Of a stretch of DNA of 64,000 nucleotides, positions 450 through 63,358 are shown in pieces (within the stretch, counting starts at the first letter, position 1; every line of letters starts with the position of its first letter). The position numbers and the translations under genes are program-made. Source of the stretch: an uncultured bacterium (GTDB taxonomy: Bacteria; Macinerneyibacteriota; Macinerneyibacteria; Macinerneyibacteriales; CAYRFE01). The notes under the pieces were generated by a model that searched no databases, was not told the origin of the DNA, and was given only the letters and a program-made list of their open reading frames with translations. The stretch is taken from the NCBI GenBank assembly GCA_964423645.1, contig CAYRFE010000010.1, forward strand, positions 21,264 to 85,263. Reading direction: 5' to 3'.

Positions 450-2534
450 CTACTTAATCGTCAAACCGCGTTCTTGACTGTCATCAGTTTTAAACTTCTC
501 CACAAGATCTTTTAACATCTCCGATTGCCGTGCAAGTTCTTCTGCCGTTTTCGCTACCTCATGCACAGCCTTTGATGATTCATCACTTGCAGTCGCCATT
601 CCGTGAATATTATTGTTTATCTCCTCAATGGTCACGCTTTCTTCTGCGATCGCCGTAGCCACGGTCGCCGCAGACTCCATCACTTTGTCGCTTGATTTTA
701 CAATTAACTCAAGCACGGCAAGCGACTCATTACCAAGTTCGACACCTTTTTTCACTTCTTTGGTGACATCATCCATTGAGGTACCGGCTTTCTCGGCTTC
801 TCCCTGCAAACTCTTGATAATAGCTACGATCTCTTTCGTTGCTTCTGCAGTTTTTTCTGCTAACTTGCGCACTTCGTCGGCTACGACAGCAAAACCCTTA
901 CCTGCTTCACCTGCGCGTGCGGCTTCGATAGCCGCGTTGAGTGCGAGAAGATTTGTCTGATCGGCTATGTCGTCGATAACAGTGATAATACTGCCGATTT
1001 TATCGGTAGATGTACCAAGATTGGCAATGATCATTGAAAGATTCGATGCCTGCTTGTCTATTGAATTCAAACCGTCGATCGTTTTTTGAATGATCTCGCC
1101 GCCTTTTGAAGTATCTTGAGCGGATGTTTCTGTAGTCTTTTTTGCATCTTCCATCGATTCGGAAATACTTTCGGAAGTCACCGCAAGCTCATTCAATGCC
1201 GTAGCGATCGACTGCGCCTGTTCGCTTTGTTCGAGTGCCGTTGAGGCAAGCTCTTCTGATGAAGATGAGATTTGTTCCGCAGCCGCGCTCACATTCAATG
1301 CGCCTGATTTAACATCTACGACAAGAGAATGGATTCGATAAATAAACTTATTAAACCATTCTGCCAGCTCTCCCAATTCGTCTCTACTGTCTACCTGTAT
1401 AGTACGTGTCAGATCTGCTTCCCCTTCTGCCAAATCCTTTGCACGTAGCACCATTATCTTAACAGGTTTAACAACGAGTTTTGTCACAAACCAAATACAA
1501 GCTAAAATAAGTATTATAGAAAATAACCCGACAATAATCGTATACCTGATCAATTTATTTGATTCTTCCACGACTTTATCCATTGGAATAGAAACACCAA
1601 AAGACCAAAACTGATTTTCTGTATAATTTACAGAAAACGGCTCATAAATAATTTTTGAAGAAATTCCTGTGGCAGCTTCATATGCCATATACTCGAACTC
1701 AGTTCCGTTTAAAATCTTTTTATCAATAGACTCTTTCGTATTAATATCTTTTTCAAAATCTCCAACTTTTTTACCATTCGCTTCTTCTAAAGGATGTGAT
1801 ACGGCGGTAGAGTTATTTGAAAATAAGAATGCATACCCAGTGCCCATTGGTTTAATATTTGAAATCATCTTCTGAAAAAGCTCCATTGATATATCAACGC
1901 CAACAACACCGACAACGGTTCCGGCAGTGTTTTTTATGGGAACACACATACTGACCATTAAAATATTTTGATTATTAACCGGATATATAAACGGATCCAT
2001 AATAACAGGCTTTCCTAAGTTTTTCGGTTTATTATAATAGTCTCCGGCAGAATCCGTCTTGTCGTAATCAACACAAGTCTCTAAATGAACACCGTCGACA
2101 CGATTCCAGTAAGGAGCAAATCTTCCGGTGGCATCACTACCTGGCTGTCCCATAAAATCGGCATCAAGCCCGTCTAATGCATTCGGCTCCCACACCGACC
2201 AAACACCCAACAACCGGTCATGTTTTTCCAATACACTTTGTAATTGTTTACTAATATCAGCTCGACGTTCTTTGGGATCTAATGATTCGTAATTTGAAAA
2301 TATTGCTCCTAACACATAGGGAATTTGCATTGTTGCATCCAATTCTCCTTTAATGATTGCCATATTATACTTTGTTAAAGTATCCGAGTAATCTACTGCC
2401 ATTTTATTTGCCATAACATTCGCCTTATAGCCGACAATAACAATGGTGAATGCAAATCCGACTACTACCGCAAGTGTTATCCAAATAAACATCTTCAACT
2501 GAAACGACACATTCTTAAACATACGCACCTCCAT
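450..2534 (-). CDS. Methyl-accepting chemotaxis protein, double-Cache periplasmic sensor + HAMP + MCP signalling domain
   Basis: N-terminal TM, Cache-like region, second TM, HAMP, conserved MCP hairpin tip ([41 protein letters not shown]); RBS ggaggtg before ATG. Confidence 0.9.
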
Positions 2535-2671
2535 TATTTCATCAATAGATTCACATACACAGTACTGTTGTATATTACAATAAAATCAAATATTTTTCAA
2601 TGTTTTTTTTGTGTTCTTGCTCCCATGGCAATAAAAATCCTTCCCCGGAATGGAGAAAGAATATACTAAGA

Positions 2672-2792
2672 ACGTTTTGCGAATTAACACTATCCCGATT
2701 TCGGCTACATTTAAAACGGAGACGTGGAGGCGAAGTCCCTGATATATAACAAGTTAAACCCCTCTCGATTTTCAAAAGAGGGGTTTAGGGAA
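2672..2792 (+). repeat. Repeat family A copy 1 (degenerate)
   Basis: ggaggcgaagtccct...TATATAACAAGTTAAACCCCTCTcgattttcaaaAGAGGGGTTTAGGG; hairpin 2 at 2759-2783 carries a compensatory C>T/G>A pair. Confidence 0.65.
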
Positions 2793-2854
2793 GACTCAAT
2801 GCCAAAAATGAGCAACATAGCAAAGATCTCGATACAGTATAAAAATTCAAACGG

Positions 2855-4522
2855 CTATTTAATTGTCATACCACGCCGGGGTGTATCGTTCAATGTAAAA
2901 TGTTCAACAAGTTCTTTGAGCATTTCTGACTGTCGCGCCAATTCTTCCGCAGTACGTGCAACCTCTGAAACCGCTTTCGATGACTCATCGGCAGCTGAGG
3001 CCATTTGCTGCACACCGCCGTTGATCTCTTCTATGGCCTCGGTTTCCTGCGCTACAGCGGTTGCCACTGTTGCAGTGGCTTCAAGCACATTATCGCCGGT
3101 TTTGACGATACTATCAAGAACATCAAGTGACTCTTGGCCTTGTTTCACCCCTAATTTCACTTCATCGCTTACAGTCTGCATTGCATTCCCTGCATTTTCA
3201 GAGTCGGATTGTAATTTTTTAATAATATCAACAATTTCTTTGGTAGCGTCTGCTGTTTTTTCTGCAAGCTTTCGTACTTCATCAGCAACGACCGCAAATC
3301 CTTTTCCCGCCTCACCGGCACGTGCGGCTTCTATCGCCGCATTAAGTGCCAGTAAATTAGTCTGATCCGCAATATCATCGATAACGGAAATAATACTTCC
3401 TATTTTTTCGGTAGATTTCCCAAGATTACTGATGATGTGGGCAAGATTATCGGTTTGTGAACTTATCGTCTTCAAACCGTCTATTGTTTTTTGTATGATG
3501 GTAACGCCTTTTGTGGTCTCGTGATTTGATGTTTCGGTAAAATTCTTGGTTCTTTCAACTTCTTCTGCAATATTATCAGATGTCGTTGAAAGCTCATTGA
3601 GCGATGCGGCAATTGTTTGTGTCTGGGCACTTTGTTCATTTGCCGTCGCCGCCAACTCTTCCGATGACGCTGATATCTGTTCTGAAGCTGCCGCCAAGCT
3701 TTGAGCAGAGCCTTGTATTTCGCGAATCAGATTCGCAATATTATCCGCCGCTTGGTTAAGTGCATTTCCCAACATCCCTAACTCATCTTTTTGGTCTAAC
3801 TCGATACGAGTACTCAAATCGCCCTGCTCAAGTCGTTGAGCAAATACTAATCCCTTATTCACCGGAATAGAGACCGCACGCGACAACAGCGTTGAGGTAA
3901 AAAATGACATAATGAGAGCCGCCGCCAACATGATAATCCCTAGTATCGTTCCGTTTTTCGTATCACCGTGAATTTCTTTTTTCATCACTTCACCATACGA
4001 TGATTGGACTTTCACCAAATCTTCAGTGATGTTTTTCAGTTCTTCAAACGGAATAAACCATTCATCATAACTTGTTTTTGCCAGAAAAAGATCACTCGCC
4101 GTGACCGCTGACATAAAATTCTCACGTTTCCCCGCAGCTTTCGGCAGGACCTCTTCCCATTTTGCGATCAATGTTTTTTCTTCCTCTATAAGGTAGGTCA
4201 TCTTGTACGCATCCCATTTTTCCTTATATTCTTGTGTCAGTTTTTGAATATTTTCGGTACGCTTTTGGATTTCATCAGTATTTCCCTCTACTGCAGCAAT
4301 GTAGATACTCGCCATATCAATACGAATTTGCAAAATATTTTTTAAAATATTATTTAATTCGATAGCAGGAATAAAACGATCGTCGTAAAATGAGTTGAAT
4401 TCTTTTTCAGATTCTTTAAGACTTCGAAACTGTTCAATTGAAAGAAATACAATAACGGATATAAATAAAAGTGTTGCAACAAAGATTTTTCCTTTCACGG
4501 GAAGATCGTTTAACCACTTCAT
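2855..4522 (-). CDS. Methyl-accepting chemotaxis protein (four-helix-bundle sensor, HAMP, MCP domain), paralog of 450-2534
   Basis: Same signalling-domain motifs as the first MCP; strong RBS aaggaggcggaaATG. Confidence 0.9.
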
Positions 4523-11150: not shown

Positions 11151-11235
11151 TTACATTATGTTTAAAGTCACGCATATAAGTATGTGTTCTTTCCTTTAGT
11201 TCTGGCATAGACACTCCCTGTCCTTCGTAAATCCA

Positions 11236-11386
11236 GGCCTTTGTAAAATTCAAAATTTACAAACAATCTTTATTTTCTTAAAAGGAATGTGGGGGCAGAA
11301 AATCTTTCTGCCCGCCTCCCGATTTTCACGGGAGGGGTTTGGGGTGTGGGCACAATTTCAAAAATTGTAGTTTTGCGAAGGTCTAT
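11236..11386 (+). repeat. Repeat family A copy 2 (full length, variant hairpin 1)
   Basis: 5' arm ctttattttcttaaaagg; hairpin 1 replaced by GGGCAGAAAatcTTTCTGCCC (11293-11313); hairpin 2 at 11314-11338; GGGGTTTGGGGTGTGGGCACAA and tail tttgcgaaggtct. Confidence 0.75.
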
Positions 11387-20979: not shown

Positions 20980-22107
20980 ATGTATACACTTATAATAGCC
21001 CGAGGCTATCCCTCGGAAAGATCAAAAAGTTACGGTATTTTCGAATTTGATCAAGCGCAAGCATTGGTAAAAGTCGGATGTAAGGTCGTCTACGCGGCAC
21101 TTGATGTGCGCTCGGTACGACACTGGCGAAAATGGGGTATTGAGCATTTTGAGAAAAATAATGTAACCATAGTCGCGCTTAATATTCCATGCGGGCGGAT
21201 ACCTCTCAAAATACTTTATTTTATCGCTGAAAGAGGATTAAAAATACTGTACTCATATATTGAAAAAAAGTATGGCCCCCCGGATGTGATGCATGCGCAT
21301 TTCCCCGATTATGCTTATGTCGCTACAAAACTCAAAAATAAAACAGGTATCCGATTGGTGGTAACTGAACACTCATCTGAAATAATAAAACCCTCATTAG
21401 TGAAAAACTTGAATAAAATAGCGCAACAAATATATGATAATTCTGACGCGATCATTGCCGTAAGCCCTGCACTTTCGGAAGCTATAGAAAAAAACTACGG
21501 ACACATTGCACGTTACATCCCCAATATGGTTGATATAGACATTTTCACTTACATGCCTCGTCACATACACGATGGTTTTCGATTGGTATCCGTCGGTAAT
21601 CTGATCGTTCGCAAAAGAACAGACCTCACCATTGAAGCATTTCATCAAGCGTTCAAGAATGAACAAAATGTAACATTAACCATTTTCGGCGAAGGCGAAG
21701 AACGTCCGTTCTTGGAAAAACTTATCGAGAAATATAATCTTTCACAAAAAGTATTTCTCAAAGGATTATGCTCGCGTCATGAAATTGCCAAGAATTTTCA
21801 GGAGAGTGATTGTTTTGTGCTTGCATCCCGCGCAGAAACATTCGGTGTCGCGTACGTCGAAGCTATGGCAACCGGACTTCCCGTCATTGCAACAAAATGT
21901 GGCGGAGTCGATGCCTTCATTCATAATGGAAACGGTGTGTTGGTGCCTGTTGATAACCTTGAAGATTTGACCGATGGAATGAAATATATGTATGCGCATG
22001 CTGCTGCTTTTGATCAAAGAAAAATTTCTGAGGAAATGCATCAAAACTTTTCTCCGGAAACGGTATCACGCCAATTGATAGCGGTATACGAATCTTTGAT
22101 AAAATAA
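20980..22107 (+). CDS. Family-4 glycosyltransferase
   Basis: FGVAYVEAMATGLPVIATKCGG GT4 signature. Confidence 0.85.
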   Translation: MYTLIIARGYPSERSKSYGIFEFDQAQALVKVGCKVVYAALDVRSVRHWRKWGIEHFEKNNVTIVALNIPCGRIPLKILYFIAERGLKILYSYIEKKYGPPDVMHAHFPDYAYVATKLKNKTGIRLVVTEHSSEIIKPSLVKNLNKIAQQIYDNSDAIIAVSPALSEAIEKNYGHIARYIPNMVDIDIFTYMPRHIHDGFRLVSVGNLIVRKRTDLTIEAFHQAFKNEQNVTLTIFGEGEERPFLEKLIEKYNLSQKVFLKGLCSRHEIAKNFQESDCFVLASRAETFGVAYVEAMATGLPVIATKCGGVDAFIHNGNGVLVPVDNLEDLTDGMKYMYAHAAAFDQRKISEEMHQNFSPETVSRQLIAVYESLIK

Positions 22108-22168: not shown

Positions 22169-22295
22169 GACCTTTGCAAAACTACCGTTTTTTTGAATTT
22201 GCGCCCACCCCAAACCCCTCCCGTGAAAATCGGGAGGGGCTTAAGTTGTTATATAATGGGGACTTCGTCCCCACACCCCTTATAATAACAAAACG
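22169..22295 (-). repeat. Repeat family A copy 4 (reverse orientation), between convergent GT4 genes
   Basis: Hairpin 2 CCCCTCCCgtgaaaatCGGGAGGGG at 22215-22239; hairpin 1 GGGGACTTCGTCCCC at 22258-22272. Confidence 0.75.
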
Positions 22296-31656: not shown

Positions 31657-32874
31657 ATGCCGCATCATAAAGGAACCGTCGGAATTCTTACCGGCGGAGG
31701 TGACACCTGCGCACTCAATAAAAGTATTGAAACTATTAAAGATATCGCCTATCTCTTAGATTACCGTGTGTACGGCATTTACGGCGGATGGAAAGGTTTA
31801 CAAGGCGACGGTTATGTAATAAACATTACCGAACAAGATGTCAACGGCAATATCGGCGGTTCGATCCTCGGGTCGTCACGCACCAATCCGTATAAAAAAG
31901 ACGCAACCGGTAACGACAATGTCGATGAAGTCCTGGCAAATATCAAACGATACGGTATTGATATTATTATCTCGATCGGTGGTGATGATACCAATAGTGT
32001 TTCTCAACGACTATATAAAGAACACGGAATAAAAGTGATCGGATTTCCCAAAACAATTGATAATGATTTACGTACTCGCACGATGCACACTTTAACTGAC
32101 GGCACAGAAATCGAAGCGTCCCTTTGCCCCGGCTTTCCCACCGCTGCCGATAAGATCATTCACATGACCGCCAATTTGCATACAACCGCGATGACACACA
32201 ATCGTATATTTGTCGTTGAGATAATGGGGCGCGATGCGGGATGGCTGCCTGCCACCTCCATTCTTGGCGGTGCGGATATGGTGTTAATCCCCGAGATCGA
32301 AATGACCAAAAGCCGTATTGAAGATTTCATGTCTTATGTTGAGGAAAAATATAAGGACCGTCAATCGCTTATTATCGGTGTATCTGAAGGAGTTCGTTGG
32401 TGGAATGATACGACGAATGCATGCGACTTGGTAAAAGCAAGCCAGGAGCTCGATTCGTTCGGACATCCGCGTCTGGGCGGTATCGCGGCGCATATAGCAA
32501 ATGAAATTAACAATCGCAAGATCGCTGATGCACGCTCGCAAGTGGCAGGATATGTCCCGCGTAGCGGCTACGCTTCGGAATACGACAAAATGCTCTCCAC
32601 GTCACTGGGACAAATGGTACTGAAAATGATACTAAAAGAACAGTATGGTCACATGCCGACCATGGCACGTGTAGTGAACTTCCGTCAGCTTGAAACCTAT
32701 AATGCACATACAATCCCGTTGGATGATATCGGCAATAAAGGATTTGATGCAAAGCATTACTATGACGCCGCGCGCTTTAATGTAAATGCAAATTTTAAAG
32801 ATTTCATAAAACGCATCGCGTTTCGCGAGCCGACATTGCCGAAAAAAATCGATTATACAAAAATAGTTCCGTAA
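31657..32874 (+). CDS. pfp: 6-phosphofructokinase, predicted pyrophosphate-dependent
   Basis: PFK fold with GGDDT (Asp replacing the Gly of GGDGS) and PKTIDND (Lys); these are the two residues known to correlate with PPi rather than ATP use. Confidence 0.9.
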   Translation: MPHHKGTVGILTGGGDTCALNKSIETIKDIAYLLDYRVYGIYGGWKGLQGDGYVINITEQDVNGNIGGSILGSSRTNPYKKDATGNDNVDEVLANIKRYGIDIIISIGGDDTNSVSQRLYKEHGIKVIGFPKTIDNDLRTRTMHTLTDGTEIEASLCPGFPTAADKIIHMTANLHTTAMTHNRIFVVEIMGRDAGWLPATSILGGADMVLIPEIEMTKSRIEDFMSYVEEKYKDRQSLIIGVSEGVRWWNDTTNACDLVKASQELDSFGHPRLGGIAAHIANEINNRKIADARSQVAGYVPRSGYASEYDKMLSTSLGQMVLKMILKEQYGHMPTMARVVNFRQLETYNAHTIPLDDIGNKGFDAKHYYDAARFNVNANFKDFIKRIAFREPTLPKKIDYTKIVP

Positions 32875-32905: not shown

Positions 32906-32965
32906 ACAAGACTTATACCATCAGATTTACATTATTACTCTTACTTATATACGCTTACTCTTACA

Positions 32966-35524
32966 TCATTCGATACTCTCAATCACCAATTCTTGTATCC
33001 ACATCGGCATTTTCCCTTTTAGCTTTTTTAACTTGTCGGTTTTGGTTTCGACAGTTTCTCCTTCTTGCGGATATACCTGTTCGCGCCATGTTTCGTCAGT
33101 CAGTAATTCATTATGCATAAACTCATAATAACTGTATACATATCCCGCTCCGATTCGCTTTCCGCCATAAGGATCATTGAGCGCGACATATAGTTTCAAC
33201 GGTTTTCCTATCGCATTGAGTTGATAGGTATCTATTTTTGCTTCAGGATTTATCCACTTTGCAATATCGGTTACAAGCGCCATTCGCGGATCGTCAGTTC
33301 GTATACCAAGCTGCGCTGTTCCAATCAAATCAATCGTTTCCTGTAATGTTGATTTAACCTGTATAATTTTCTCCATTTCATTTACCAATGTATTGATGTA
33401 TTCATTTTCTTCAGCCGAAATTGGTTGCTGAAGAGCCTGTTTTTCTGCAATTATAGTGAGTGTATCAATGACTTTCGAATATCGTTCAAGCCCCACTTGT
33501 AGTTTCGCATCGAGCACTCCCACAATAGGAAACATTTCGTTGTAGCGGTTTAACAATATACGCATTCTGTAAAAAAATGGTAGATTAGGTTCAACATAAT
33601 TAATAACAGGATTTTTATATACATGAAATCCCATAGAACTGGCCAATTGTAAAGGGCGTCTGTATAACACGGTATCATGCATTCGTTGAGTCCACGCACT
33701 AAGCCCTGTCATGAGTGATTTTTTCTCCCAATTCTTACTCTGAGTGAAGTAAAAATCCGGACTGCTTCCAAATTCATACAACGTCGTTATGATGCCTAAA
33801 TAATTCATGTGAATATTCGATTGCCACTCGGATTCTGAATACCGACTACTAAGCGAGGTAAGTTGTGTATAATTACTCTCAAGCTGTGAAAAGGTTTTGA
33901 AATCCTTTTGGATCAACTCGCGACCAAAAGTATTCCCAAATACCGCAGACGTATCATACCCGTGCGGAATACGACGTTCATCGTGAGATTCTTCAAAAAC
34001 TGCGAGTTTTTCCAGTGCATATAAATCAAGATTATAGGTTTGCGGCACTATTTCAAAGAACTCTGCTCGCGAAATACCATCAGAAGAGTAATTACTTTTC
34101 AAGGATTCAATAAAGGCTGCTCTGACTTTGGCATCAAAGATAATATCTCTTCTGTTATCAATATTTTGAAGTAACTCATATGAATAAGCATTACTGTCTC
34201 CGAAAAAATTACGCATTGTAGCAATATACACACTGTATGTCTCCATCAAGTCGGTATTTCGCGAAAGAATCTCATAGAAAAGCACAAATAATGCTGCATC
34301 ATTAGGATACTTGTGTATATCCATCTCAAATCTTAAAGAACTTAACCAGGTAAATACTCGCCAATATTTTTGCAATTGTTCTGTTTCCCGATAATGTATA
34401 CGTGGAGAAAACCGCATGTACGCGATTTCTTTATCGATAATATCAGAGCTTTCAACCCCGGATTCACGTTTAATTTTTTGCAGTTCATTCCGGGCGTTTG
34501 TACTCATTGATTCTTCTTTCACTTGTTCACCGGATAACACAGCAGCAACAGTGAAAACATCATATAACGTATTAAAATAACGTTCATAAGCGGTATAATT
34601 CTTATTTTTTGAATAACTTTGTAAATCGTGATACATTCCACTTACAAATGAAAATAGAAGAGGGGCGAGTATTTTTCGCTCAACATCTATCTGTATCTTA
34701 TAATTCAAAGTACGGAATGTATGCATCAGCCAATCGGTCGTTACAAATATCGACACGGTGCTCCCTTTAGGCTCTACAATATCATAAAGACTTTTATATG
34801 CTTGAATCATATCATCATTATCTTTATATACCTCAAAATTTTCATCCACAATAGCAAATTTGTCACGAATGAGCCGTTGCTGCACGTCGTCAGGAATTCT
34901 TTTAAAACCAACATACGGCAAGAATGCTTTCGGACGATTTTTGTTTTTTGTATAATATTTATCCAATCCGGACTCATCCATCTTCAAAAACGTTACTTTT
35001 TCAGAGTTATACTTACTATTTGATTTAATTATGGTTTTTTTTACATCTACTATTTGATGTTTACCAATACTATTCAATGCCTTAACAATACGTTGAAGCT
35101 TTTCAGGCGAAACATAAGTCATCTCATCAATTAAATCTGTATTACTACCTTTTTTTTCATCCGAGCAAATAGTAGTCCATTGACTTTGAAGAGAATCAAA
35201 CATAGTTTCTGACATATTCGGATGTTTGTTGACTAATTTCTGGAGCCAAAATTTCGCCTGAATGTAATCTTTGTATTCTGCTTGATAAATATGGGAGAGC
35301 ATGCTCATTGCATTATAATAACCATAGGACATTTCAGCAATCTTTTTATAAATTTCAATTGCTTTATCAAATTCTTTATTATTGTAATAAATATATGCGA
35401 CTTGCTCTAAAGCGTCCTTATCCCCCTCATGCGCTTTTTTCTGTAAATCTGCAGGGATATCAATAGCACCGCATAGCGACTTCACAACACACACAAAAAA
35501 TATTATTAAAAGCACACGTTTCAT
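32966..35524 (-). CDS. Large secreted protein (852 aa): N-terminal Sel1/TPR-like region plus conserved C-terminal domain of unknown function
   Basis: Signal peptide; collinear paralog of 35634-38258; the C-terminal 84 aa are identical. Confidence 0.8.
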   Translation of the reverse strand: MKRVLLIIFFVCVVKSLCGAIDIPADLQKKAHEGDKDALEQVAYIYYNNKEFDKAIEIYKKIAEMSYGYYNAMSMLSHIYQAEYKDYIQAKFWLQKLVNKHPNMSETMFDSLQSQWTTICSDEKKGSNTDLIDEMTYVSPEKLQRIVKALNSIGKHQIVDVKKTIIKSNSKYNSEKVTFLKMDESGLDKYYTKNKNRPKAFLPYVGFKRIPDDVQQRLIRDKFAIVDENFEVYKDNDDMIQAYKSLYDIVEPKGSTVSIFVTTDWLMHTFRTLNYKIQIDVERKILAPLLFSFVSGMYHDLQSYSKNKNYTAYERYFNTLYDVFTVAAVLSGEQVKEESMSTNARNELQKIKRESGVESSDIIDKEIAYMRFSPRIHYRETEQLQKYWRVFTWLSSLRFEMDIHKYPNDAALFVLFYEILSRNTDLMETYSVYIATMRNFFGDSNAYSYELLQNIDNRRDIIFDAKVRAAFIESLKSNYSSDGISRAEFFEIVPQTYNLDLYALEKLAVFEESHDERRIPHGYDTSAVFGNTFGRELIQKDFKTFSQLESNYTQLTSLSSRYSESEWQSNIHMNYLGIITTLYEFGSSPDFYFTQSKNWEKKSLMTGLSAWTQRMHDTVLYRRPLQLASSMGFHVYKNPVINYVEPNLPFFYRMRILLNRYNEMFPIVGVLDAKLQVGLERYSKVIDTLTIIAEKQALQQPISAEENEYINTLVNEMEKIIQVKSTLQETIDLIGTAQLGIRTDDPRMALVTDIAKWINPEAKIDTYQLNAIGKPLKLYVALNDPYGGKRIGAGYVYSYYEFMHNELLTDETWREQVYPQEGETVETKTDKLKKLKGKMPMWIQELVIESIE
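33042..33295. repeat. 254-bp block identical to 35731-35984 (3' ends of the tandem paralogs)
   Basis: Base-by-base identical, against roughly 50-60% identity across the rest of the genes. Confidence 0.85.
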
Positions 35525-35633
35525 ATGCTATACCTCCATATGCTTTGAATTAATGGGTACCCATTCTATCCAATGTCTTGGTTATCACCTTTTCTTTTGC
35601 GAATACTTTTTAATCACCATTTTCAATCACCAT

Positions 35634-38258
35634 CTATTGCGGCCAAATAGGCATTTTCTCTTTTCCTTCAATCACCAATTCTTGCACCCACATCGGCATT
35701 TTCCCTTTTAGTTGTTTTGACTTGTCGGTCTTGGTTTCGACAGTTTCTCCTTCTTGCGGATATACCTGTTCGCGCCATGTTTCGTCAGTCAGTAATTCAT
35801 TATGCATAAACTCATAATAACTGTATACATATCCCGCTCCGATTCGCTTTCCGCCATAAGGATCATTGAGCGCGACATATAGTTTCAACGGTTTTCCTAT
35901 CGCATTGAGTTGATAGGTATCTATTTTTGCTTCAGGATTTATCCACTTTGCAATATCGGTTACAAGCGCCATTCGCGGATCGTCGGTGCGTATAGCCAAC
36001 TTTTCGGTGGCATATAGATCAATAACTTCCTGAAGAGAAGACTTTGCTTCAACAATTTGTTCCATTTCATACACCAACGAATTTATATACTCATTTTCTT
36101 CAGAGCTTATAGGTTGATTCAATGCCTCTTTATCTACAATCACTGATAAAATATCAATGACAGCCACATAGCGATTTAAGGCTTCCCGAAGCTTCTCATC
36201 GACGATGTCATGGGTGGATATAAAATCGGTATAACTTGCTAGAATTTGCTTCATGCGGTAAAAAAACATCAGATTTGGCTCTACATAATTAATAATAGGA
36301 TGCTTTGTTAATTCAAATGCTTGTCCCCAAGCTGTTGCAAAAGGTTCTCTGTACAAAACGGAATCATGCATACGCTGTGTCCATGCGCTTAAACCGGTCA
36401 TTAATGCTTTTTTCTCCCAATTCTTACTCCGGGTGAAATAAAAATTATCGTTGCTACCGAACGAATACAACTCCTTAAGCAACGAAAGATAGCGCATATG
36501 CAAATTCGATTGCCACTCGACTTCCGAATATCGACCGGCAAGTGTTGTTACTTTTGTATATTCGCCTTCAAGTAATGAAAAGTCCTTAAAGTCTTTTTGA
36601 ATCAATTCATTGCCAAAGGCATTGCCGAATATTGCGGCAGTATCATACCCGTGAGAAATACGATATTCCCGGCGAGATTCTTCCTTAACGCCAAATCGTT
36701 CGATCGCATACAGATCGATATTGTTGGTTTGAGGTAGTATTTCAAAGTACTCTGCAGCAGGCAACAACGGAGCATTTGCGCTTTTGGGCAATGCAGCAAT
36801 AAAATCAGCACGCGTATTCGCATCCGAAATGATGGCGTTCAAATCGGTGATTTTTTCAAGCGTTTGAAAAGAATATGCATCGCTGTTGCCGAAAAACAGC
36901 TGCACTGTTTTACAATACGCCGTGTACAGTTCTGTTGATTCCTTATTGCGGGACAGCACGGTATACAGCAATGCAAATTGCTGTATATCATCCGGATATT
37001 TATTCATATCAATGCTAAACCGTAAGCTGCTCAACCATGTAAAAACACGCCAATATGTGCTCAGTTGCTCTGTTTCTCTATAATGGATTCGCGGGATAAA
37101 TCGTGTATAATCTATTATTTTTCCCGTTACATAGGATTGACGATAGCTTTCTTTTCCGTCCCGAATGAGCGCGAGCTCTTTCTTCGCGTTTTGCGACAAA
37201 TTCTTTTCTGCCGAAGCATCTCCGCTCAATACTGCGGCAATCGAAAAGATGTCATACAGCACATTTGTATGGTCTTTAAACTGCAATCCCTCTTCCGTCG
37301 TGCGATACTCATCGATCTCCTTATACATTTTTCCCGTAAAAGAGATGAGCAAAGGAGCCAATGCTTTGCGCTCTACATCAACTTGAATCTTATAGTTTAT
37401 TGTTCGAAATGTATGCATCAGCCAATCGGTTGTCACAAATATTGACACAATACTCCCTTTAGGATCCCAACGTGGACATAAAGTTTTATACGCTTGAATC
37501 ATATCATCTTTTTTTTCAAACATATCAATGTCTTCATCAACAATAGCGAATCTGTCACGAATGAGACGTTGTTGCACATCATCAGGGATACGCTCAAGCC
37601 CGACATACGGTAAGAATACTTTAGGATGATTTTTATTGTTCTTATAATAGTCCTTCACCTGTGAGTCATCAATCTTCGCAAATACGACTTTTTCATTGTT
37701 TAACTTTTTATTCGGTTTATACACGGGTTGTTTAAGCGGATAAATCCGGGTTTCCTTTGTGTCATTCAATTCTGCACTCAGATGACGAATTTGCTCCGGA
37801 GTAACACTTGTGAGCGCGTTGATTATCTCGGTAGTGTTTATCCCTTTTTCATCTTTACGTATATCATTCCAAATTCCTGAGATTTCCTCATAAATAAAAT
37901 CCGGCAAGTTATTAGGATGTTTATTTACTAGTTTTTGGAGCCAATATTTAGCCTTAATGTAATTTTTGTATTCTATATGATTAATACGAGCAAGCATGAG
38001 CATAGCCATAAAAGAACCGTCCTGTAAGTCTGCGACCTTCTCATATACTTTAACAGCCTTATCGATTTCTTTGTTATTATAATATAGGTGTCCTATTTGT
38101 ATTAACGCTTGCCGATCCCCTTCATTTGCTTTTTTCTGCAATTCTGCAGGGATATCAACAGCGCTGCAAAACAGGTTTAAACACATGTAACAAAAAACCA
38201 TCATTATACAAACACTGCATTTCATACCCTCATCCTCCACTTTGATATCTATACTCAA
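35634..38258 (-). CDS. Large secreted protein (874 aa), tandem paralog of 32966-35524
   Basis: Shared blocks (RIPDDVQQRLIRD, VTTDWLMHTFR, IHYRETEQL, WRVFTWLSSLRF, identical C-terminus). Confidence 0.8.
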   Translation of the reverse strand: MSIDIKVEDEGMKCSVCIMMVFCYMCLNLFCSAVDIPAELQKKANEGDRQALIQIGHLYYNNKEIDKAVKVYEKVADLQDGSFMAMLMLARINHIEYKNYIKAKYWLQKLVNKHPNNLPDFIYEEISGIWNDIRKDEKGINTTEIINALTSVTPEQIRHLSAELNDTKETRIYPLKQPVYKPNKKLNNEKVVFAKIDDSQVKDYYKNNKNHPKVFLPYVGLERIPDDVQQRLIRDRFAIVDEDIDMFEKKDDMIQAYKTLCPRWDPKGSIVSIFVTTDWLMHTFRTINYKIQVDVERKALAPLLISFTGKMYKEIDEYRTTEEGLQFKDHTNVLYDIFSIAAVLSGDASAEKNLSQNAKKELALIRDGKESYRQSYVTGKIIDYTRFIPRIHYRETEQLSTYWRVFTWLSSLRFSIDMNKYPDDIQQFALLYTVLSRNKESTELYTAYCKTVQLFFGNSDAYSFQTLEKITDLNAIISDANTRADFIAALPKSANAPLLPAAEYFEILPQTNNIDLYAIERFGVKEESRREYRISHGYDTAAIFGNAFGNELIQKDFKDFSLLEGEYTKVTTLAGRYSEVEWQSNLHMRYLSLLKELYSFGSNDNFYFTRSKNWEKKALMTGLSAWTQRMHDSVLYREPFATAWGQAFELTKHPIINYVEPNLMFFYRMKQILASYTDFISTHDIVDEKLREALNRYVAVIDILSVIVDKEALNQPISSEENEYINSLVYEMEQIVEAKSSLQEVIDLYATEKLAIRTDDPRMALVTDIAKWINPEAKIDTYQLNAIGKPLKLYVALNDPYGGKRIGAGYVYSYYEFMHNELLTDETWREQVYPQEGETVETKTDKSKQLKGKMPMWVQELVIEGKEKMPIWPQ

Positions 38259-38461
38259 ACGATACTACCAGTTCAACTTTTCGATGTCAATTATATTGTT
38301 TTTGCGTACTATTTACGTTCAGATAGTAGCGTTGTCAAAAACACATGCAACGCATAAATACTGCAAAATCGGTACAGTTTGACCAAATAGTTTGTTGCAA
38401 ATATTTTTTTTTCTTACATTTCCCTTGAGAAATTCACCACAGCGATATACAATTAGAGCAT

Positions 38462-39289
38462 ATGATGCAATATATTGTTCAAAACAACTCCACCCTTGTA
38501 GATTTTATCGTTGAGATGTGTACGGTGAGTCGTTCACAAGCAAAACGTATGATTGACATGAGAACAATATTCGTCAACGATCGTCGCGTGTGGATTGCGG
38601 GATATGAACTCAAAGTCGGTGACGTTGTTGAATTACCTGAAGACACTTCGCTAGCACGCGGGCTCCCCGGCATACCGATCCTTTATGAAAACGAACACAT
38701 TATCGTGGTCAATAAACCGGCAGGAATCGTCTCGGATGATGCCAAAAATTCCGTTGAATCCATTCTCAGAACTATTTATGGTGAATCAGTGCAAGCGATC
38801 CACCGGCTTGATAAAGAAACCACCGGAGCGTTATTATTTGCACGCACACCGGAAATATTTGAAAAATATAAAACCTGGTGGAAAGAAGGACGTACCGTGA
38901 AATTGTATGCCGCCTTATGCCTGCACACGGCACGTTTCAAAGAACGTACCGTAACAACACGTGTGGACAATAAACCCGCCCGGTCGATCATTTATGTGCG
39001 TGCAGTATCAGAAAATGCTTCATATGTTGAAATAAATGCAGTTACCGGGCGTAAGCATCAACTACGAATTCATTGTGCATCTATCGGAATACCCATTGCG
39101 GGAGATAAATTTTATACGCTTGAAACACTGGCTGATACGATCGTCAAGTTAATTCCCCGTCAGATGCTTCATTGTATACAGTTAACCGTTCCGCGACCTG
39201 ATGGAGACGGGGAGATCACATTCACAGCGCCGATACCTTCAGATTTCATAAAAACCGCACGAAAACTCGGAATTTCGATTCATATTTGA
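38462..39289 (+). CDS. RluA-family pseudouridine synthase
   Basis: HRLDKETTGALLFAR catalytic-Asp motif. Confidence 0.85.
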   Translation: MMQYIVQNNSTLVDFIVEMCTVSRSQAKRMIDMRTIFVNDRRVWIAGYELKVGDVVELPEDTSLARGLPGIPILYENEHIIVVNKPAGIVSDDAKNSVESILRTIYGESVQAIHRLDKETTGALLFARTPEIFEKYKTWWKEGRTVKLYAALCLHTARFKERTVTTRVDNKPARSIIYVRAVSENASYVEINAVTGRKHQLRIHCASIGIPIAGDKFYTLETLADTIVKLIPRQMLHCIQLTVPRPDGDGEITFTAPIPSDFIKTARKLGISIHI

Positions 39290-39315
39290 TCCGCTTTAAA
39301 GACAGCAATACGATA

Positions 39316-39457
39316 CCTTCGCAAAATTCATCATTTCAAAAATTTCTTTATTTTCTTAAAAGGGGTGGGGGGACAAAGTCCCCACTATATAACAAGTTAA
39401 ACCCCTCCCTATTTTCATGGGAGGGGTTTGGGGTGGGCACAATTCGAGACCTTTGCA
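39316..39457 (+). repeat. Repeat family A copy 5 (first of a tandem pair)
   Basis: Hairpin 1 GGGGACAAAGTCCCC at 39369-39383; hairpin 2 CCCCTCCCtattttcatGGGAGGGG at 39402-39426. Confidence 0.8.
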
Positions 39458-39610
39458 AAATTCATCATTTCCAAAATTTCTTTATTTTCTTAAAAGGGGT
39501 GTGGGGACGAAGTCCCCACTATATAACAATTTAAGCCCCTCCCGATTTTTACGGGAGGGGTTTGGGGTGGGCACAATTCATAAAAATAATAGTATTTTTG
39601 CAAAGCTCTC
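39458..39610 (+). repeat. Repeat family A copy 6 (second tandem unit, closest to a consensus)
   Basis: Hairpin 1 GGGGACGAAGTCCCC at 39504-39518; hairpin 2 CCCCTCCCgatttttaCGGGAGGGG at 39537-39561; tail ttcataaaaataatagtatttttgcaaagctctc. Confidence 0.8.
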
Positions 39611-40185: not shown

Positions 40186-41118
40186 TCATTTATCAATGAT
40201 AACTAAATTATTCATACGTGAAGATTCATAAATCGATTCTTCCAGAAGTTCCAATATATCGTCAATCGTTTTCATTTTCCGCACATACACCAAACCTTTG
40301 TCAAAACGAGCGGTAATTTCTTTGTCATGTAAAAACTTGCTCATTTCTTTTTCTATTCTATTGATAACGTCGATGATGGTCACCTCTTCAGGATTTTCCA
40401 AAATGACCATTAAACCGGTTCCTCCATGTAATGATATCGTATCAATGGCGCGAATATGTTTCTTTATTGTTTTGGCTAATCCTGCAACAGCAAGATCCAT
40501 CGTTGCCGACCCGTAACGTTTTTTCAATTCGATAAACTCATGATAGCGAGTATAAAAAACTGCAAAACATTGCTTGTGGCGACGTAACCGCTCAAGCACT
40601 TCCTGTAATTTGATATAGAAATAACTGGCACTGTATGCACCCGTTTCCTCATCATATACTGCCATATTATGTACCATCTCATCAAGGCTCATCGTTTTTA
40701 AAATAAATGCGGCAAGCATACTGATATTCTCGAAGAGCGTAAGGTCATCATCATGGAATTCACGTTCAGATGCCATTATTGAGAGACCAACAGTGACGTT
40801 TTTAACGGTCAATGGAAACAGATATACCGAACCGGGATTATTTTCCAACGGGTATTCGCTTCCTGCTCGCACACCTTCATGCGATTCAAAAGCTTTCGCG
40901 ATGCATTCATCAGTCAATGTCAACGTATTACTATTGATAAATGCCGCACTTACTCCACGTGCCATTTTTACACGGAAACGATCATGACTGAACACATATA
41001 ACACACATTGCTTTAAATGCAACTCTTTCATAAGCGCAGTCATCAGATTTGATAAAATTTCTTCATACGTTGACGCATGCGACACGTTTTTTAAAAATGC
41101 ATTATGTTTTTTTTGCAT
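40186..41118 (-). CDS. GAF-like domain plus degenerate GGDEF-like domain protein (predicted catalytically inactive)
   Basis: RYHEF where GG(D/E)EF is expected; start reassigned to Met 29 (41118), which has the RBS aaggagagggcATG. Confidence 0.6.
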   Translation of the reverse strand: MQKKHNAFLKNVSHASTYEEILSNLMTALMKELHLKQCVLYVFSHDRFRVKMARGVSAAFINSNTLTLTDECIAKAFESHEGVRAGSEYPLENNPGSVYLFPLTVKNVTVGLSIMASEREFHDDDLTLFENISMLAAFILKTMSLDEMVHNMAVYDEETGAYSASYFYIKLQEVLERLRRHKQCFAVFYTRYHEFIELKKRYGSATMDLAVAGLAKTIKKHIRAIDTISLHGGTGLMVILENPEEVTIIDVINRIEKEMSKFLHDKEITARFDKGLVYVRKMKTIDDILELLEESIYESSRMNNLVIIDK

Positions 41119-42787
41119 CGCCCTCTCCTTTATTTTGCTGCGTATGCAGCATCGTTTTCTTTTCGACATAAGAGCTCTGCACCACATAATCGGATCCCTC
41201 AAATTCTTTCACGACCGTCGATACATCATTCACCGCTGCAACAATTCGATCGAGCATCGCACGCTCTGAGGGGAATTTTCGCATCAATAATTCGATTGTA
41301 GCCAAGATCGTGGTAAGTGGCGAATTAATGCGATGATTAAGTGTTACCGAGAGATCATGCACAAGATGAAGTTTTTCTTTGACCACTTCTGATTCATCAG
41401 CACATAAGCGTAGATAGATCATGCCGGTATATGATAAAAAATCAACAATTTCTGCTAATTCTTCCTGAGAAACCATTCGCTTACTAAAGACGTTATCACC
41501 ATAAATGAATCCGCTGATTGTTCCGGGACCGGGTATAGGAAAAACATAATATGTGCTTGACCCGACTCTTTTTGTAAAACTTTGATGGAGTAAATTATCT
41601 TTTTCGGTATAAAACTCTTTATCGCCGAATGATTCCGGCATCGTAATAATCTGTTGAGAAAAAATATCAGGTTTGCAATCGGCAAGATACTCACGTAAAT
41701 GATACCCGTGAGTATTTTTATCAAAAAAGAATACTCTGTCAAAATGAAAATATGTAGTGAATGTCGTAAAAAAAGAAGTAAATGCTCGTGACGGATCACC
41801 ATATACTAAATCTTTTAAAAATTCATGCAAGAATTCCTGTTTATATAGACGTTTGTTAAGTGTGACGATGACATCTCGCGAGAATTCATGCTTTTCAGCG
41901 GCAAAAAATTTATGGATATTTTCAAAATCGTTGTAATATGATGTGTCAAGAGAATATGAATCCAAAAAATTCTTGATCTTCGGTAATACGCCGCCTATCA
42001 CCTCATCAAGAAGTGAAAGCGACATGAGCAATTCTTTCTCAGTGAAAATAAAAAAGTAGGGTAATTCTTCAATAATATGATTATGCAATACAGCCCATAC
42101 AAATTCTTCGCAAAAGGTCATTATCTTTCGATGCGAGGGATCTTCCGGAGAATGGAGATTACTACACGCTGCATCCACAAATGTTTGCGGTAAATGCCAT
42201 TTTTCAAGAATATATTTACTCAACGCAATGTGTGAAAAACCCAGTGACCGTATTTGTGACTCGAGAAACGTTTGAAGTGTTTCCGTATCTTTCTTGAGTA
42301 TATCGGAAAGTAGCTCATACTGAGTTTCATATAAAAACAAATACCCAATATGCCGTAACAACATTTGTGAAAACAGTATTCCTTGTATAGGAATGCCTTT
42401 TATCTGAGCAAGACGCTGGGTAAGTAACGCAGAGACAAACGAAAAAAGGAAAAAACGTTTTGTTTCTTCTTCCGGGACATTGGCAAATGATCGTGTGTGT
42501 TCATAAAATAAGACACATAACAACACCTCGCGTAATTTATCCAGCCCGAGTAGTGACACCGCATGTTGTATATCGGTAATTTTATGCGGTAAATAGTAAT
42601 AACCTGAATTTATTAAATTGAATACTTTTGCAGAGAGCATCGCATTCTGCTCCAACTCACTGCTTATCATTTTTATATCGGTTTCATCCGACATCAGTAT
42701 TTGAATGATTCGAATAACGATCGTCGATGGTAAATGATGATGATTCAGTAGAGTATCTATTGCCGAATAATCTATGCCTTGCGTCAT
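41102..42787 (-). CDS. HDOD-domain protein with a C-terminal HisKA-like dimerisation/phospho-acceptor segment and no ATPase domain
   Basis: N-terminal HDOD features; C-terminal [25 protein letters not shown] matches an H-box; the protein ends about 60 aa later. Confidence 0.65.
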
Positions 42788-43431
42788 ATCTTTAAGTACT
42801 TTCTTACCTTAACCTGCAAAAATAAAGGAAGAAGCGAGAGGGATCGGCTCACGACATTTTTATATCCCCTGATCGAATTATCGATCATATATACTAAGAG
42901 CACGTATTTTTCACTTACCTCCGCGGCGATCCAAAAATCTTTCACCAAAAACATATTGGATAAATCCGTTAAATACGTGATTAAGAAATCATGCGCGATC
43001 GCTCTGTTTCCTGAATTGGGATCCTTTTTAGCCGCATGTATCAGTGCTTTCAGTGCCATTTCTCGACGCTCGAACAAAACATACATTGCTTGGCGACGAA
43101 CCAGATAATTTCCGGAATACATCACCAGATTCACAATTTCTTCTGCAGGCATACGGCGAACAAGCGGATCAATAATATGAAAAAAGAAATATTTCTTTTT
43201 CGGTTTGGGCGTTATTTGCTTCACGGCCATATCCGGTTTCACTCGATAATCTATCGGCGTTCTGCAAACACTTGAATACGCATCTTGAATGTGTTTGAAT
43301 TTTTCAATATCTCCACCGGGATTATCGGGATGATACCGTTTTACAAGCGCACGATAGGCTCGTTTAATCTCTTCTTTGTGCGCATTTTTTGAAACACCCA
43401 GCACTTCATACCATACTTCGACATCGTTCAT
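42784..43431 (-). CDS. J-domain co-chaperone (DnaJ-like N-terminal domain only)
   Basis: [30 protein letters not shown] with an HPD motif; no Gly/Phe, Zn-finger or C-terminal DnaJ domains; ATGA overlap with the Hsp70 gene. Confidence 0.8.
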
Positions 43432-45143
43432 TCGTTGTGGCCCTCCGTAATAATACGTGCGGTTTCTATAAGTTCACGCAACACGGTGATATCTCTGTCT
43501 GCAATATGCCGATCAATATCTTGTATTAAATGCACTACATCTTCATGCTCGCTGTCGTGAGCTAATGTGGCATACTCATTTAACGCATCGATCATTGTGT
43601 GAGCAGTCGCAATAATTGACTCTTCTTTCTCATGAATCATCTCATCTTGTCGTTCGCTCTCTTCAATAATCGCTTGAACTTCTTCATCGGAAAGCGAACT
43701 CATGTTTTGAATTTCAAGTTCTTTCTTTACACCTGAGTGCATGTCCGCTGCTGATACGGACAATACACCGTTTTGATCCATACTGAACGTCACTTCAATA
43801 TCGGGTTCGCCCTTTTTCATGGCTTGGATATCCGTCAGCTCAAAACTCCCTAAAAAATGATTGTCTTTTACATTCGATGATTCACCTTGGAAAACCTTCA
43901 CTTCAACAATCTTCTGATAATCCGAAACAGTTGTAAAGTTCTGCATACGCGAGACCGGTATCGGCGTATTTCGTGTAATTAACGGCGCAAAAACACCTTT
44001 ATCTATTTCAATCCCTAAAGAAAAAGGAGTCACATCAACCAAAATCATATTCTCGCCAATTTCCCGCGTCACCACACCCTGTATAATCCCCGCCTGAATT
44101 GCCGCACCCATGGCAACACATTCATCGGGATTAATATTTTTATACGGTTTAGTATCGGAAAGGTCCTGCAGTTTTTTTTCTACGATAGGAATTCGCGTTG
44201 ATCCGCCAACCAATATCATCTTTGATAATTCACTGACTTTTACCTGTGCATCATCCAAAACACGATAAAACGGTTCATCAAGTTGATCAATATAATCATG
44301 TATCAAATCTTCGAATTGTGCACGAGTAAGCCGCATTTCTAAATGCCGAGGTCCAAGTTCATCGGCAGTAATAAACGGAATACTTATCGCAGTATGCTTC
44401 GCCTCAGACAATTCGACCTTCGCCTTCACCGATTGTTCATAAATACGCTGTAATGCCATACGATCGGTTGAAAGATCGATACCGGTTTCATTTAAAAAAG
44501 CCGACAATATATAATCTGCAATTCGAGTGTCAAAATCATCTCCCCCAAGCTTATTGTTTCCCGACGATGCAAGAACTTCAAAAACATTGTCTCCTACATC
44601 AAGGAGAGACACGTCATACGTCCCACCACCCAAATCCATGATGATTATACGCTCTCCGTCGGTTTGATTATTCGCTCCGTACGCCAGCGCTGCTGCAGTC
44701 GGTTCGTTAATGATACGTAATACGTTCAAACCTGCAATTTTAGCTGCCTGCATTGTCGCCGATCGTTGATTGTCATTAAAATATGCGGGGACTGTTATAA
44801 CGGCATCAGTGACACTGTCACCTAAAAAAACCTCTGCATCATCTTTCATTTTTCGCAATATAATTCCCGAAACTTCTTCGGGGGAATACTCAATGGAGTC
44901 AATTTTTATTTTTTCTTTTGTTCCCATCAAACGCTTTACGGATACTATTGTCCGTTCAGGACTTATAACCGCTTGATTTTTCGCACTTTGACCTACCAGA
45001 ATTTCCTTGTCTTTTGTCACTGCAACACAGGAAGGAGTAAGTCGCTCTCCTCTGTTATTGGGAATAATTTCCGGTTTGCCATCTTTTAAATATGCCATTA
45101 CCGAATTTGTGGTTCCCAGATCAATACCTATAGTAATACCCAT
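43428..45143 (-). CDS. Hsp70-family ATPase, short HscC-like form
   Basis: [20 protein letters not shown], Hsp70 substrate-binding beta domain; 571 aa with a truncated C-terminal lid. Confidence 0.88.
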
Positions 45144-60888: not shown

Positions 60889-61039
60889 ATTCAAGTATTT
60901 TTTCGTGAAACACCACATACTGTGTGAGCGTAGCGAGTTTATGTGGTGTAGAAAAAATACGCAGAATTGTAGATGATTTTTTACAGCCTTGACCTTTTTG
61001 TTACTTTTTGTGGCAAGACAAAAAGTAAGGCATGATTTT

Positions 61040-61165
61040 ATAAGTTGTGCCATCCCCAAACCCCTTCCGCTGAATTCGGAAGGGGCTTCACGATTTTAAT
61101 AATGGGGACTTCGTGCCCACACCCCTTTAAGATTTCGCTTCTGTTATAAATTTTTCTCTTTTGCC
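61040..61165 (-). repeat. Repeat family A copy 7 (reverse orientation, variant hairpin 2)
   Basis: Hairpin 2 CCCTTCCGctgaattCGGAAGGG at 61061-61085; hairpin 1 GGGGACTTCGTGCCC at 61104-61118. Confidence 0.7.
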
Positions 61166-63202: not shown

Positions 63203-63244
63203 ATAAAATGAGCTACCCCTCAGCAAGTTATTGAGTATCGCATT

Positions 63245-63358
63245 GTGCGCCCACCCCAAACCCCCTCCCTTTTATTTTGGGAGGGGCTTAATTTTTTTTA
63301 TAATGGGGACTTCGTCCCCATACCCCTAAAAATGAAATATTTCGAATTTCGCAAAGGG
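63245..63358 (-). repeat. Repeat family A copy 8 (reverse orientation)
   Basis: Hairpin 2 CCCCTCCCttttattttGGGAGGGG at 63262-63286; hairpin 1 GGGGACTTCGTCCCC at 63305-63319; tail tttcgcaaagg. Confidence 0.75.

Follow-up and report, generated by a model that had tools for sequence, protein, structure and literature searches.

Probable recent gene conversion between diverged tandem DUF3160 paralogues of an uncultured Macinerneyibacteriota bacterium

Non-allelic gene conversion between bacterial paralogues is known for tufA and tufB in Salmonella and for babA/babB and other outer-membrane paralogues in Helicobacter pylori. Cassette antigenic variation by segmental conversion involves tprK in Treponema pallidum, vlsE in Borrelia and pilE/pilS in Neisseria. 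Non-allelic conversion and concerted evolution have been described for the rRNA operons of E. coli (PMC8022953) and in a survey of prokaryotes (PMC6053082), and gene conversion has been described at antigen and virulence-associated loci of M. tuberculosis (PMC13061034, PMC12046097). Here we describe two tandem genes, termed A and B, in a stretch of 64,000 nucleotides (nt) (“the window”; positions 21,264 to 85,263 of contig CAYRFE010000010.1, assembly GCA_964423645.1) from an uncultured bacterium of the Macinerneyibacteriota, which share a block of identical sequence in an otherwise strongly diverged background. Gene conversion between bacterial paralogues is well known and the A/B pair adds little in principle; what it offers is a clean example between ~62%-identical copies, with a breakpoint located to 6 nt and evidence of transfer in both directions.

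The A/B pair resembles other cases of paralogue conversion in having a short identity tract within diverged genes, in that this tract is closer between the paralogues than to orthologues, in its sharp breakpoints in conserved sequence, in its patchy, bidirectional transfer and in a deletion/fusion product between direct repeats found on a related contig (L003). It differs from them in its background, which is only 62% identical at the nucleotide level and has no exact run above 24 nt outside the tract, so that, with divergence this high, exchange must start from very short identical seeds. A middle patch furthermore appears swapped between A and B in the best-phased assemblies, and the genes belong to an uncharacterised family from an uncultured bacterium. 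With the cassette systems the pair shares a transferred segment spanning a hypervariable surface hairpin with conserved sequence on either side, a protein predicted to be secreted and the presence of several related copies. Unlike those cassettes, however, A and B are complete genes with their own starts and ribosome binding sites (RBS), B also having a promoter-like site; only two to four paralogues were seen here, with no sign of high-frequency within-clone switching or of a host immune target. No partial cassettes of the silent, promoterless kind were present in the window, and the locus was not classed as a cassette system.

The identical block and its orthologues

The open reading frames (ORFs) of A and B lie head to tail on the minus strand (Table 1), and the product of gene A matches the NCBI protein P0001 exactly. 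An original prediction, made from the letters of the window alone, had described the two genes as collinear paralogues of roughly 50-60% amino-acid identity sharing a block of 254 bp, base for base. Pairwise alignment bore this out: the proteins are 59.4% identical, and the longest exact run between the genes measures 254 nt, with 33042-33295 equal to 35731-35984 at a fixed offset of 2689 nt. The 84-amino-acid (aa) peptide that had been quoted for the block matches residues 744-827 of the gene A product, and a mismatch had rightly been noted just before the block, the next one at low coordinates being at 33041. In the predicted structure of the gene A protein, the C-terminus consists of a five-stranded beta-sheet (strands 750-804) followed by helices, and the block encodes this sheet together with one helix (810-817).

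Outside the block, A and B are 62.0% identical at the DNA level and 46.8% identical at third codon positions. A comparison of synonymous divergence (dS) inside and outside the block had been suggested as a check. It gave a dS of 0 for the block itself; upstream of the block dS reaches ~2.0, which is saturation, and the 25-codon tail has a dS of 0.61. The block lies within a high-identity tract (32979-33299) with mismatches at 32996, 32998, 33023, 33025, 33030, 33041, 33296 and 33299. In gene sense, mismatches restart upstream at 33296, 33299 and 33306, and beyond 33299 identity drops at once to the background of ~60-65%, in agreement with the sharp boundary that had been seen by eye; downstream of the block, six mismatches in 63 nt precede complete divergence at 32978. 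When codon columns were shuffled 10,000 times, the longest identical run had a mean of 21.7 nt and a maximum of 48 nt, and the second-longest real exact run is 24 nt. A run of 254 nt far exceeds what chance would give.

The protein index yielded close variants of both proteins, four for A and two for B, and their DNA was compared with that of the window. The contigs carry an A-like gene at another locus, termed A' (L002 and L004), an orthologue of A next to the phosphofructokinase (PFK) gene (L003), B from a near-identical genome (the JGI contig L001) and a B-like gene (L005). Over the gene body (35009-33300), window A is 99.5-99.6% identical to A', 96.7% identical to the L003 orthologue and 62.8% identical to window B. 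Over 33174-33295, window A is only 70.5-71.3% identical to the A orthologues and 100% identical to window B, and the drop in identity to the orthologues begins exactly where window A becomes identical to B. Within the tract, A and B are closer to each other than either is to its orthologues, and in the flanks this relation is reversed, which is the pattern of paralogue conversion. This reversal, the collapse of dS and the length of the exact run together make a recent non-allelic gene conversion between the tandem paralogues, as originally proposed, a highly probable source of the block.

Mosaic structure and independent assemblies

Crossovers were located using a seven-allele alignment and the typing of informative sites, an informative site being one with the same base in both A references and another base in the nearest B reference. 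Read in gene sense, gene A is A-type to 33299, then carries 28 consecutive B-type sites (33289 to ~33180), 12 A-type sites (33173 to ~33100) and 4 B-type sites, and is A-type again from 32978, while gene B is B-type throughout apart from the same 12 A-type sites. The upstream crossover is bounded by the last A-specific sites, 33296 and 33299, and by the first B-type site, 33289. The first B-type segment includes a hypervariable hairpin (aa ~753-767), which reads TDIAKWINPEAKIDT in A as against TELAQVKNQIDGRIQ in the A orthologues. In the middle segment (33101-33173), the window's block has 95.1% and 92.7% identity to the A orthologues and only ~80% to the B alleles from L001 and L005. The window's block, A-like at this point and encoding FMHNELL, is referred to here as allele X and the B-like form, encoding FMSNDLL, as allele Y (X and Y being 80.5% identical over the segment). 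By this typing, gene A holds ~250 nt of B-type sequence over its C-terminal beta-sheet module and gene B holds an A-like patch of 73-101 nt in the middle of its block. Since each gene carries sequence of the other's type, exchange is seen, at the level of the typed sites, to have run in both directions; a single, simple one-way conversion is ruled out by the A-like patch in B.

In the structural model, the upstream breakpoint falls at residue 743/744, in a low-confidence linker (737-743) that precedes the beta-sheet, so that what was transferred amounts to a structural module, the hypervariable hairpin included. The position of the breakpoint at a module edge may reflect selection for tolerated mosaics or may be a coincidence; a module transferred from just after such a linker fits the view that tolerated mosaics follow domain boundaries.

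Two further contigs, L034 and L035, were found via the neighbouring PFK protein and approach the block from the A side. They derive from the ENA samples ERZ27262924 and ERZ27262927, assembled using megahit at k=141, and are paired with L029 and L030, respectively, which hold the B copy of the same samples. Across PFK and the adjoining genes neither L034 nor L035 differs from the window, and both contain the junction between A body and B-type sequence at 33290-33295, so that the conversion is replicated in independent data. Their A block differs from that of the window at exactly 17 sites, located at 33101-33173 plus 33209. The JGI contig L001 likewise differs from the window at 17 sites in 11,271 nt, all within 35790-35898; these are the same 17 changes shifted by 2689 nt, and the block of A in L034 is identical to that of B in L001 (254/254 positions). 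The locus is accordingly represented by three allele configurations: X in both copies in the window assembly, X in B and Y in A in the ENA assemblies of both samples, and Y in B in the JGI assembly, where the A copy was not assembled. Within each ENA sample the two copies agree at 237/254 positions (93.3%), with exact runs of 86 and 59 nt. With one locus in three configurations, perfect repeats in metagenome-assembled genomes (MAGs) deserve read-level checking.

The ENA phasing is the most trustworthy, because single 141-mers join copy-specific sites to X/Y sites and the contigs traverse the block; traversal at k=141 also means that the block contains no exact repeat of 141 nt or longer in those assemblies. 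JGI contigs stop at 34955 and 33085, in each case exactly 55 nt beyond the final copy-specific site (35010 and 33030), and a Logan contig ends 30 nt past 33041. These ends are set by k-mer length, and the block therefore breaks or confuses assembly graphs. The use of L001 as proof of a real polymorphism in B was dropped, as the JGI contigs break at the block like a k=55 graph. Downstream of the block, the A-specific tail and then PFK follow in the window, L034, L035 and L039. The JGI contig L038 (window 32957-33085) likewise reaches PFK, with 5 tail differences from the window, at 32957, 32967, 32996, 32998 and 33041; it has B-like states at 33041, 32998 and 32996 and keeps the window-A states at 33023-33030. 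On these contigs the A tail also appears patchy between samples.

The window and the ENA contigs differ at 26 positions, 17 of which lie in the block of gene A and 9 in its body; every one is a paralogue-informative site, and ~21 kb of flanking DNA shows no difference. This pattern fits a very high rate of conversion relative to mutation, or collapsed paralogue bubbles. In the body, all 9 window states are those of the A' contigs L002 and L004, which points either to exchange between A and A' as well or to a merging of the two by the window's assembler. The ENA variants in the body of gene A lie at 33362-33542, 34871 and 34902, and L003 also differs from the window at 6/9 of these sites.

A collapsed repeat had been named at the outset as an artefact that would undo the prediction. 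The conversion stands, its junction being replicated; the step from 93% to 100% identity may itself be a collapse, given the 17 ENA differences. On such an account conversion is real and the 254/254 identity is an assembly product, the true genome having X in B and Y in A and X having been written into both, a possibility that we rate at somewhat under even. Both k=141 assemblies, from two samples, traverse the block and give X in B (L029, L030) and Y in A (L034, L035), the differences between window and ENA contigs are confined to paralogue-informative sites with none in the flanks, and the JGI and Logan contigs break at the block, all of which speak for a collapse. The window's contig (98.9 kb in the protein index), however, crosses both copies and 1.7 kb shared with A', suggesting long-range information from, for example, read pairs or long reads, and real allele differences between samples (5 sites in the JGI A tail, Y in the JGI B) make extra conversions plausible. 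The last step in identity was produced either by the assembly or by a further conversion, from B into A, that covered 109 nt or more. A number of points weigh against reading the window's sequence as a straightforward record of conversion. Its perfect identity is not reproduced outside the window, the ENA copies agreeing at the 237/254 positions given above, and the pattern of 26 differences is also that expected from bubble collapse or mis-polishing. All comparison sequences are metagenome contigs, several of which end inside genes at positions set by k-mer length, and phasing is unreliable in all but the k=141 assemblies. The data do not define a unique number or direction of events, and the RecA dependence presumed for recombination between A and B is an assumption.

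The remaining explanations would dispense with exchange between A and B altogether. Chimeric misassembly of the entire B-type block in gene A might be suspected from short-read metagenome assemblies of a multi-copy family, in which many contigs break inside genes. The junction, however, requires k-mers that join A-specific and B-type sequence, and because these share only 6 nt there, a switch of path in a de Bruijn graph could not have created it. The junction is present in three assemblies (window, L034 and L035), and the sequence returns to the A-specific tail and then PFK in these and in L039; with the 6-nt junction replicated, wholesale misassembly was rejected as highly improbable. Independent acquisition of the block by A and by B from an external source, for example a third paralogue or a different strain, gains some plausibility from the further paralogous loci in related contigs (A' on L002 and L004, B-like on L005) and from patch X in B, which is not identical to any sampled A allele (92.7-95.1%). 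Segments 1 and 3 are nonetheless identical to the resident B gene, an obvious donor 2.7 kb away, and no sampled outside allele matches better, which makes such a source very unlikely. Least credible of all is selection on the nucleotide sequence itself, through an RNA structure, a regulatory site or an overlapping gene. The block does encode the most conserved C-terminal core of the protein, with G794 invariant and D753, G773, Y800, E801, F802, D810 and W813 nearly invariant. Under constraint, however, orthologues would share the block sequence, yet identity to those of A is only ~71% over 33174-33295 (segment 1), and 17 sites separate the ENA A copy from B. Moreover, no tRNA or other Rfam family was found at threshold anywhere in the 64-kb window, the RNA fold of the block is ordinary (z = -1.25) and its opposite strand has short ORFs only. 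The strong constraint at synonymous sites that had been offered alongside conversion was thus discarded, since the orthologues differ in the block.

A mechanism for the favoured reading, recent conversion between A and B, has to account for the mosaic structure, its breakpoints, their replication in independent assemblies and the two-way transfer, all of them demonstrated at the level of assembled sequence. On this reading A and B descend from an old tandem duplication of the gene for a secreted TPR-DUF3160 protein, and we infer that misaligned copies recombine homologously, which would pass short patches between them with copy number unchanged. A single event could have given rise to the mosaic if heteroduplex formed on both duplexes and mismatch repair acted on it patchily; alternatively, several one-way events followed one another, possibly with further paralogues (A', B-like) as donors. 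With A and B as the only partners, a succession of two one-way events would be insufficient, because the ENA state has a B-like middle in A and an A-like middle in B.

Recombination may also have acted more widely on this set of genes. In L003, which represents a related strain, a single fusion gene (1200-3764) lies between the same neighbours, pseudouridine synthase and PFK. The gene is B-type in its promoter region and over its first ~70 nt and A-type from there on, with the crossover in a conserved DIPA(D/E)LQKKA segment; the contig comes from a k=31 assembly, which would break at any repeat. Judged by its arrangement, the fusion is the expected deletion product of recombination between direct repeats. 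Outside the body, window A and A' are 85.6% identical at the 5' end and 65.8% identical in the tail. The near-identity of their bodies, with small clusters of differences, may be due to further conversion or to assembler path switching and is not relied on here. It is conceivable, though unlikely, that the DUF3160 paralogues (A, B, A' and B-like) make up a diversity-generating module acting by recurrent, sometimes reciprocal, short-patch exchange. Through such a module the C-terminal beta-sheet, hypervariable hairpin included, and the N-terminal leader/TPR end would be reassorted, so that a secreted enzyme would acquire new combinations of specificity or antigenic surface in an otherwise clonal population, at a rate far above that of point mutation.

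The DUF3160 proteins

Both proteins match the Pfam family PF11369 (DUF3160) over nearly its full length, with E-values of 2.3e-80 (A) and 2.6e-79 (B). The respective scores, 271 and 268 bits, exceed the Pfam gathering cut-off of 25, and the matches extend from position 4 to position 623 of the 632-position model. The tentative earlier suggestion of a DUF3160-like family was therefore correct, at E ~1e-80 over 620/632 model positions. A Sel1/TPR-like N-terminus had also been proposed, of which the TPR-like part was recovered by structure comparison and the Sel1 part had no match. In sequence searches, TPR models remained below threshold over ~residues 37-105 (best Pfam scores 15-23 bits vs cut-offs of 25-27), and NCBIfam gave nothing beyond weak partial TPR matches. 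An AlphaFold2 model of the gene A protein, built on 71 family members (pLDDT 87.3, pTM 0.83), has an N-terminal hydrophobic helix, paired helices at 25-150 and a large helical domain ahead of the C-terminal sheet. In a Foldseek search of the PDB, the TPR part matched designed TPR proteins with a probability of 1.0 and a target TM-score of 0.6-0.74 over ~90 residues; the DUF3160 domain had no match at E <= 0.001, and an alignment profile of the DUF3160 proteins had no credible match among PDB sequences. DUF3160 is a large family (2,093 representatives at E <= 1e-3, or ~2,000 at 50% clustering) with a confident predicted fold and no detectable solved homologue. By eye, the N-terminal leaders read MKR + VLLIIFFVCVV + KSLCGA/ID in A and MKCSVCIMMVFCYMCLNLFCSA/VD in B, neither with a classical lipobox.

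DUF3160 has been described as a secreted enzyme by Makarova et al. 2014 (PMC4158269), the sole mention of the family found in the literature. Genes A and B resemble this family in their full-length model match, in their N-terminal hydrophobic leader and in all five residues that are invariant in 71/71 sequences (D264, E282, Y378, E645 and G794). The nearly invariant residues (>=90%) give a mixed picture: most are retained, H616, D617, Y800, E801 and F802 among them, and four are replaced, as listed below. On the strength of the invariant D, E, Y and E residues and of that annotation, the A and B proteins are most likely secreted enzymes. The A/B clade differs from the rest of the family in its extra N-terminal TPR region, in its isolation (the nearest relative outside the clade is 34% identical) and in several replacements. 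Residues conserved at >=90% are changed at H271->R, G376->I, F388->W and L614->R, and at position 613 Q replaces the majority E, which is found in 61/71 members. The nearest relative, P0009, shares the replacements of H271 and F388, has M at 376 and K at 614 and keeps E at 613. These replacements may mark a changed activity in the A/B subfamily. The contigs of the nearest outgroups, P0009 and P0010, are short and their gene context was uninformative. A scan of genome contigs with the DUF3160 alignment found no relatives; a scan of metagenome contigs found nothing with protein patterns and two chance matches (L027 and L028) with a 20-nt conserved DNA pattern. Separate exact look-ups of P0001 and P0005 gave no record.

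A lead to the function of DUF3160 is provided by its association with a papain-like lipoprotein in related contigs. A' (L002, L004) has its own upstream region and overlaps by 4 nt the gene for a 798-aa lipoprotein (lipobox LSVGC), which gives two weak but independent and concordant papain-family signals at residues ~237-313 (PF00112, E 0.033; Blo t 1, E 0.12). In L005, the B-like gene has an A'-like 5' region and is followed by a 47%-identical homologue of the lipoprotein. No protease-like partner gene was found in the window. The arrangement suggests an ancestral two-gene operon of DUF3160 and protease genes.

Locus and neighbouring features

Gene and feature coordinates are collected in Table 1. 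The ORF of gene B, taken mechanically, reaches a TTG at 38258 and would then encode 874 aa. This is probably not the true start: a GGAGG lies 8 nt before the ATG at 38225, the promoter-like site ends at 38262 and the database product for gene B (P0007) has 863 aa, and on these grounds ATG 38225 is the likely start. A scan of the spacer between B and A gave no terminator-like or strong promoter-like site, and the two genes may for this reason be co-transcribed. The nearest genome match for the PFK neighbour is a MAG at 80% protein identity, in which no DUF3160 gene lies near the PFK homologue.

Table 1. Features of the A/B locus, in window coordinates unless a contig is named
Feature	Coordinates	Strand	Remarks
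Gene A	32966-35524	minus	852 aa; ORF; hydrophobic leader, TPR-like region (~aa 25-150), DUF3160 (aa 214-820)
Gene B	35634-38225	minus	863 aa from ATG 38225; ORF; architecture as gene A
B-A spacer	35525-35633	minus	109 nt; promoter/terminator scan
Promoter-like site upstream of gene B	38262-38290	minus	TTGACA, 17 nt, TG-TAGTAT; consensus match only
Block copy in gene A	33042-33295	minus	codons 744-827; exact run; dN = dS = 0
Block copy in gene B	35731-35984	minus	exact run; same B sequence in ENA assemblies L029 and L030
Upstream (gene-sense 5') crossover interval in A	33290-33295	minus	6 nt, GACGAT on gene strand; seven-allele alignment and informative-site typing
Segment 1 of block in A	33174-33289	minus	B-type; 28 consecutive B-type informative sites
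Segment 3 of block in A	33042-33100	minus	B-type; downstream crossover ~33042-33058
Variable patch, A coordinates	33101-33209	minus	17 sites: 16 at 33101-33173 and one at 33209
Variable patch, B coordinates	35790-35898	minus	allele X in window, L029, L030; Y in JGI contig L001
Tail of A	32966-33041	minus	last 25 codons and stop; copy-specific, 84% identical to B, closest to L003 orthologue
Replaced residues 271, 376, 388, 613, 614 of gene A	~34712, 34397, 34361, 33686, 33683		
PFK gene	31657-32874	plus	adjoins A side of pair
Pseudouridine synthase gene	38462-39289	plus	adjoins B side of pair
Copies of ~130-nt intergenic repeat	2726-2818, 11229-11294, 22190-22281, 39306-39573, 61036-61127, 63237-63328		
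Lipoprotein partner genes	L002 3078-5474; L004 2851-5247; L005 2858-3559		

Beyond the pseudouridine synthase gene, a minus-strand run at 40186-45143 encodes Hsp70/MreB-like ATPase, DnaJ-domain, HDOD, GGDEF and HD-domain proteins, the domains being taken from the annotation of the identical contig L001. This is an unusual chaperone-signalling cluster.

A repeat of ~130 nt with two G-rich hairpins (e.g. CCCCTCCC...GGGAGGGG) is dispersed in intergenic positions of the window, and its copy at 39306-39573 is a tandem pair, 92% identical. The repeat matched no Rfam family; one unit folds better than 200/200 shuffles (z = -3.2). It looks like a repetitive extragenic palindromic (REP)-like or miniature inverted-repeat transposable element (MITE)-like element.

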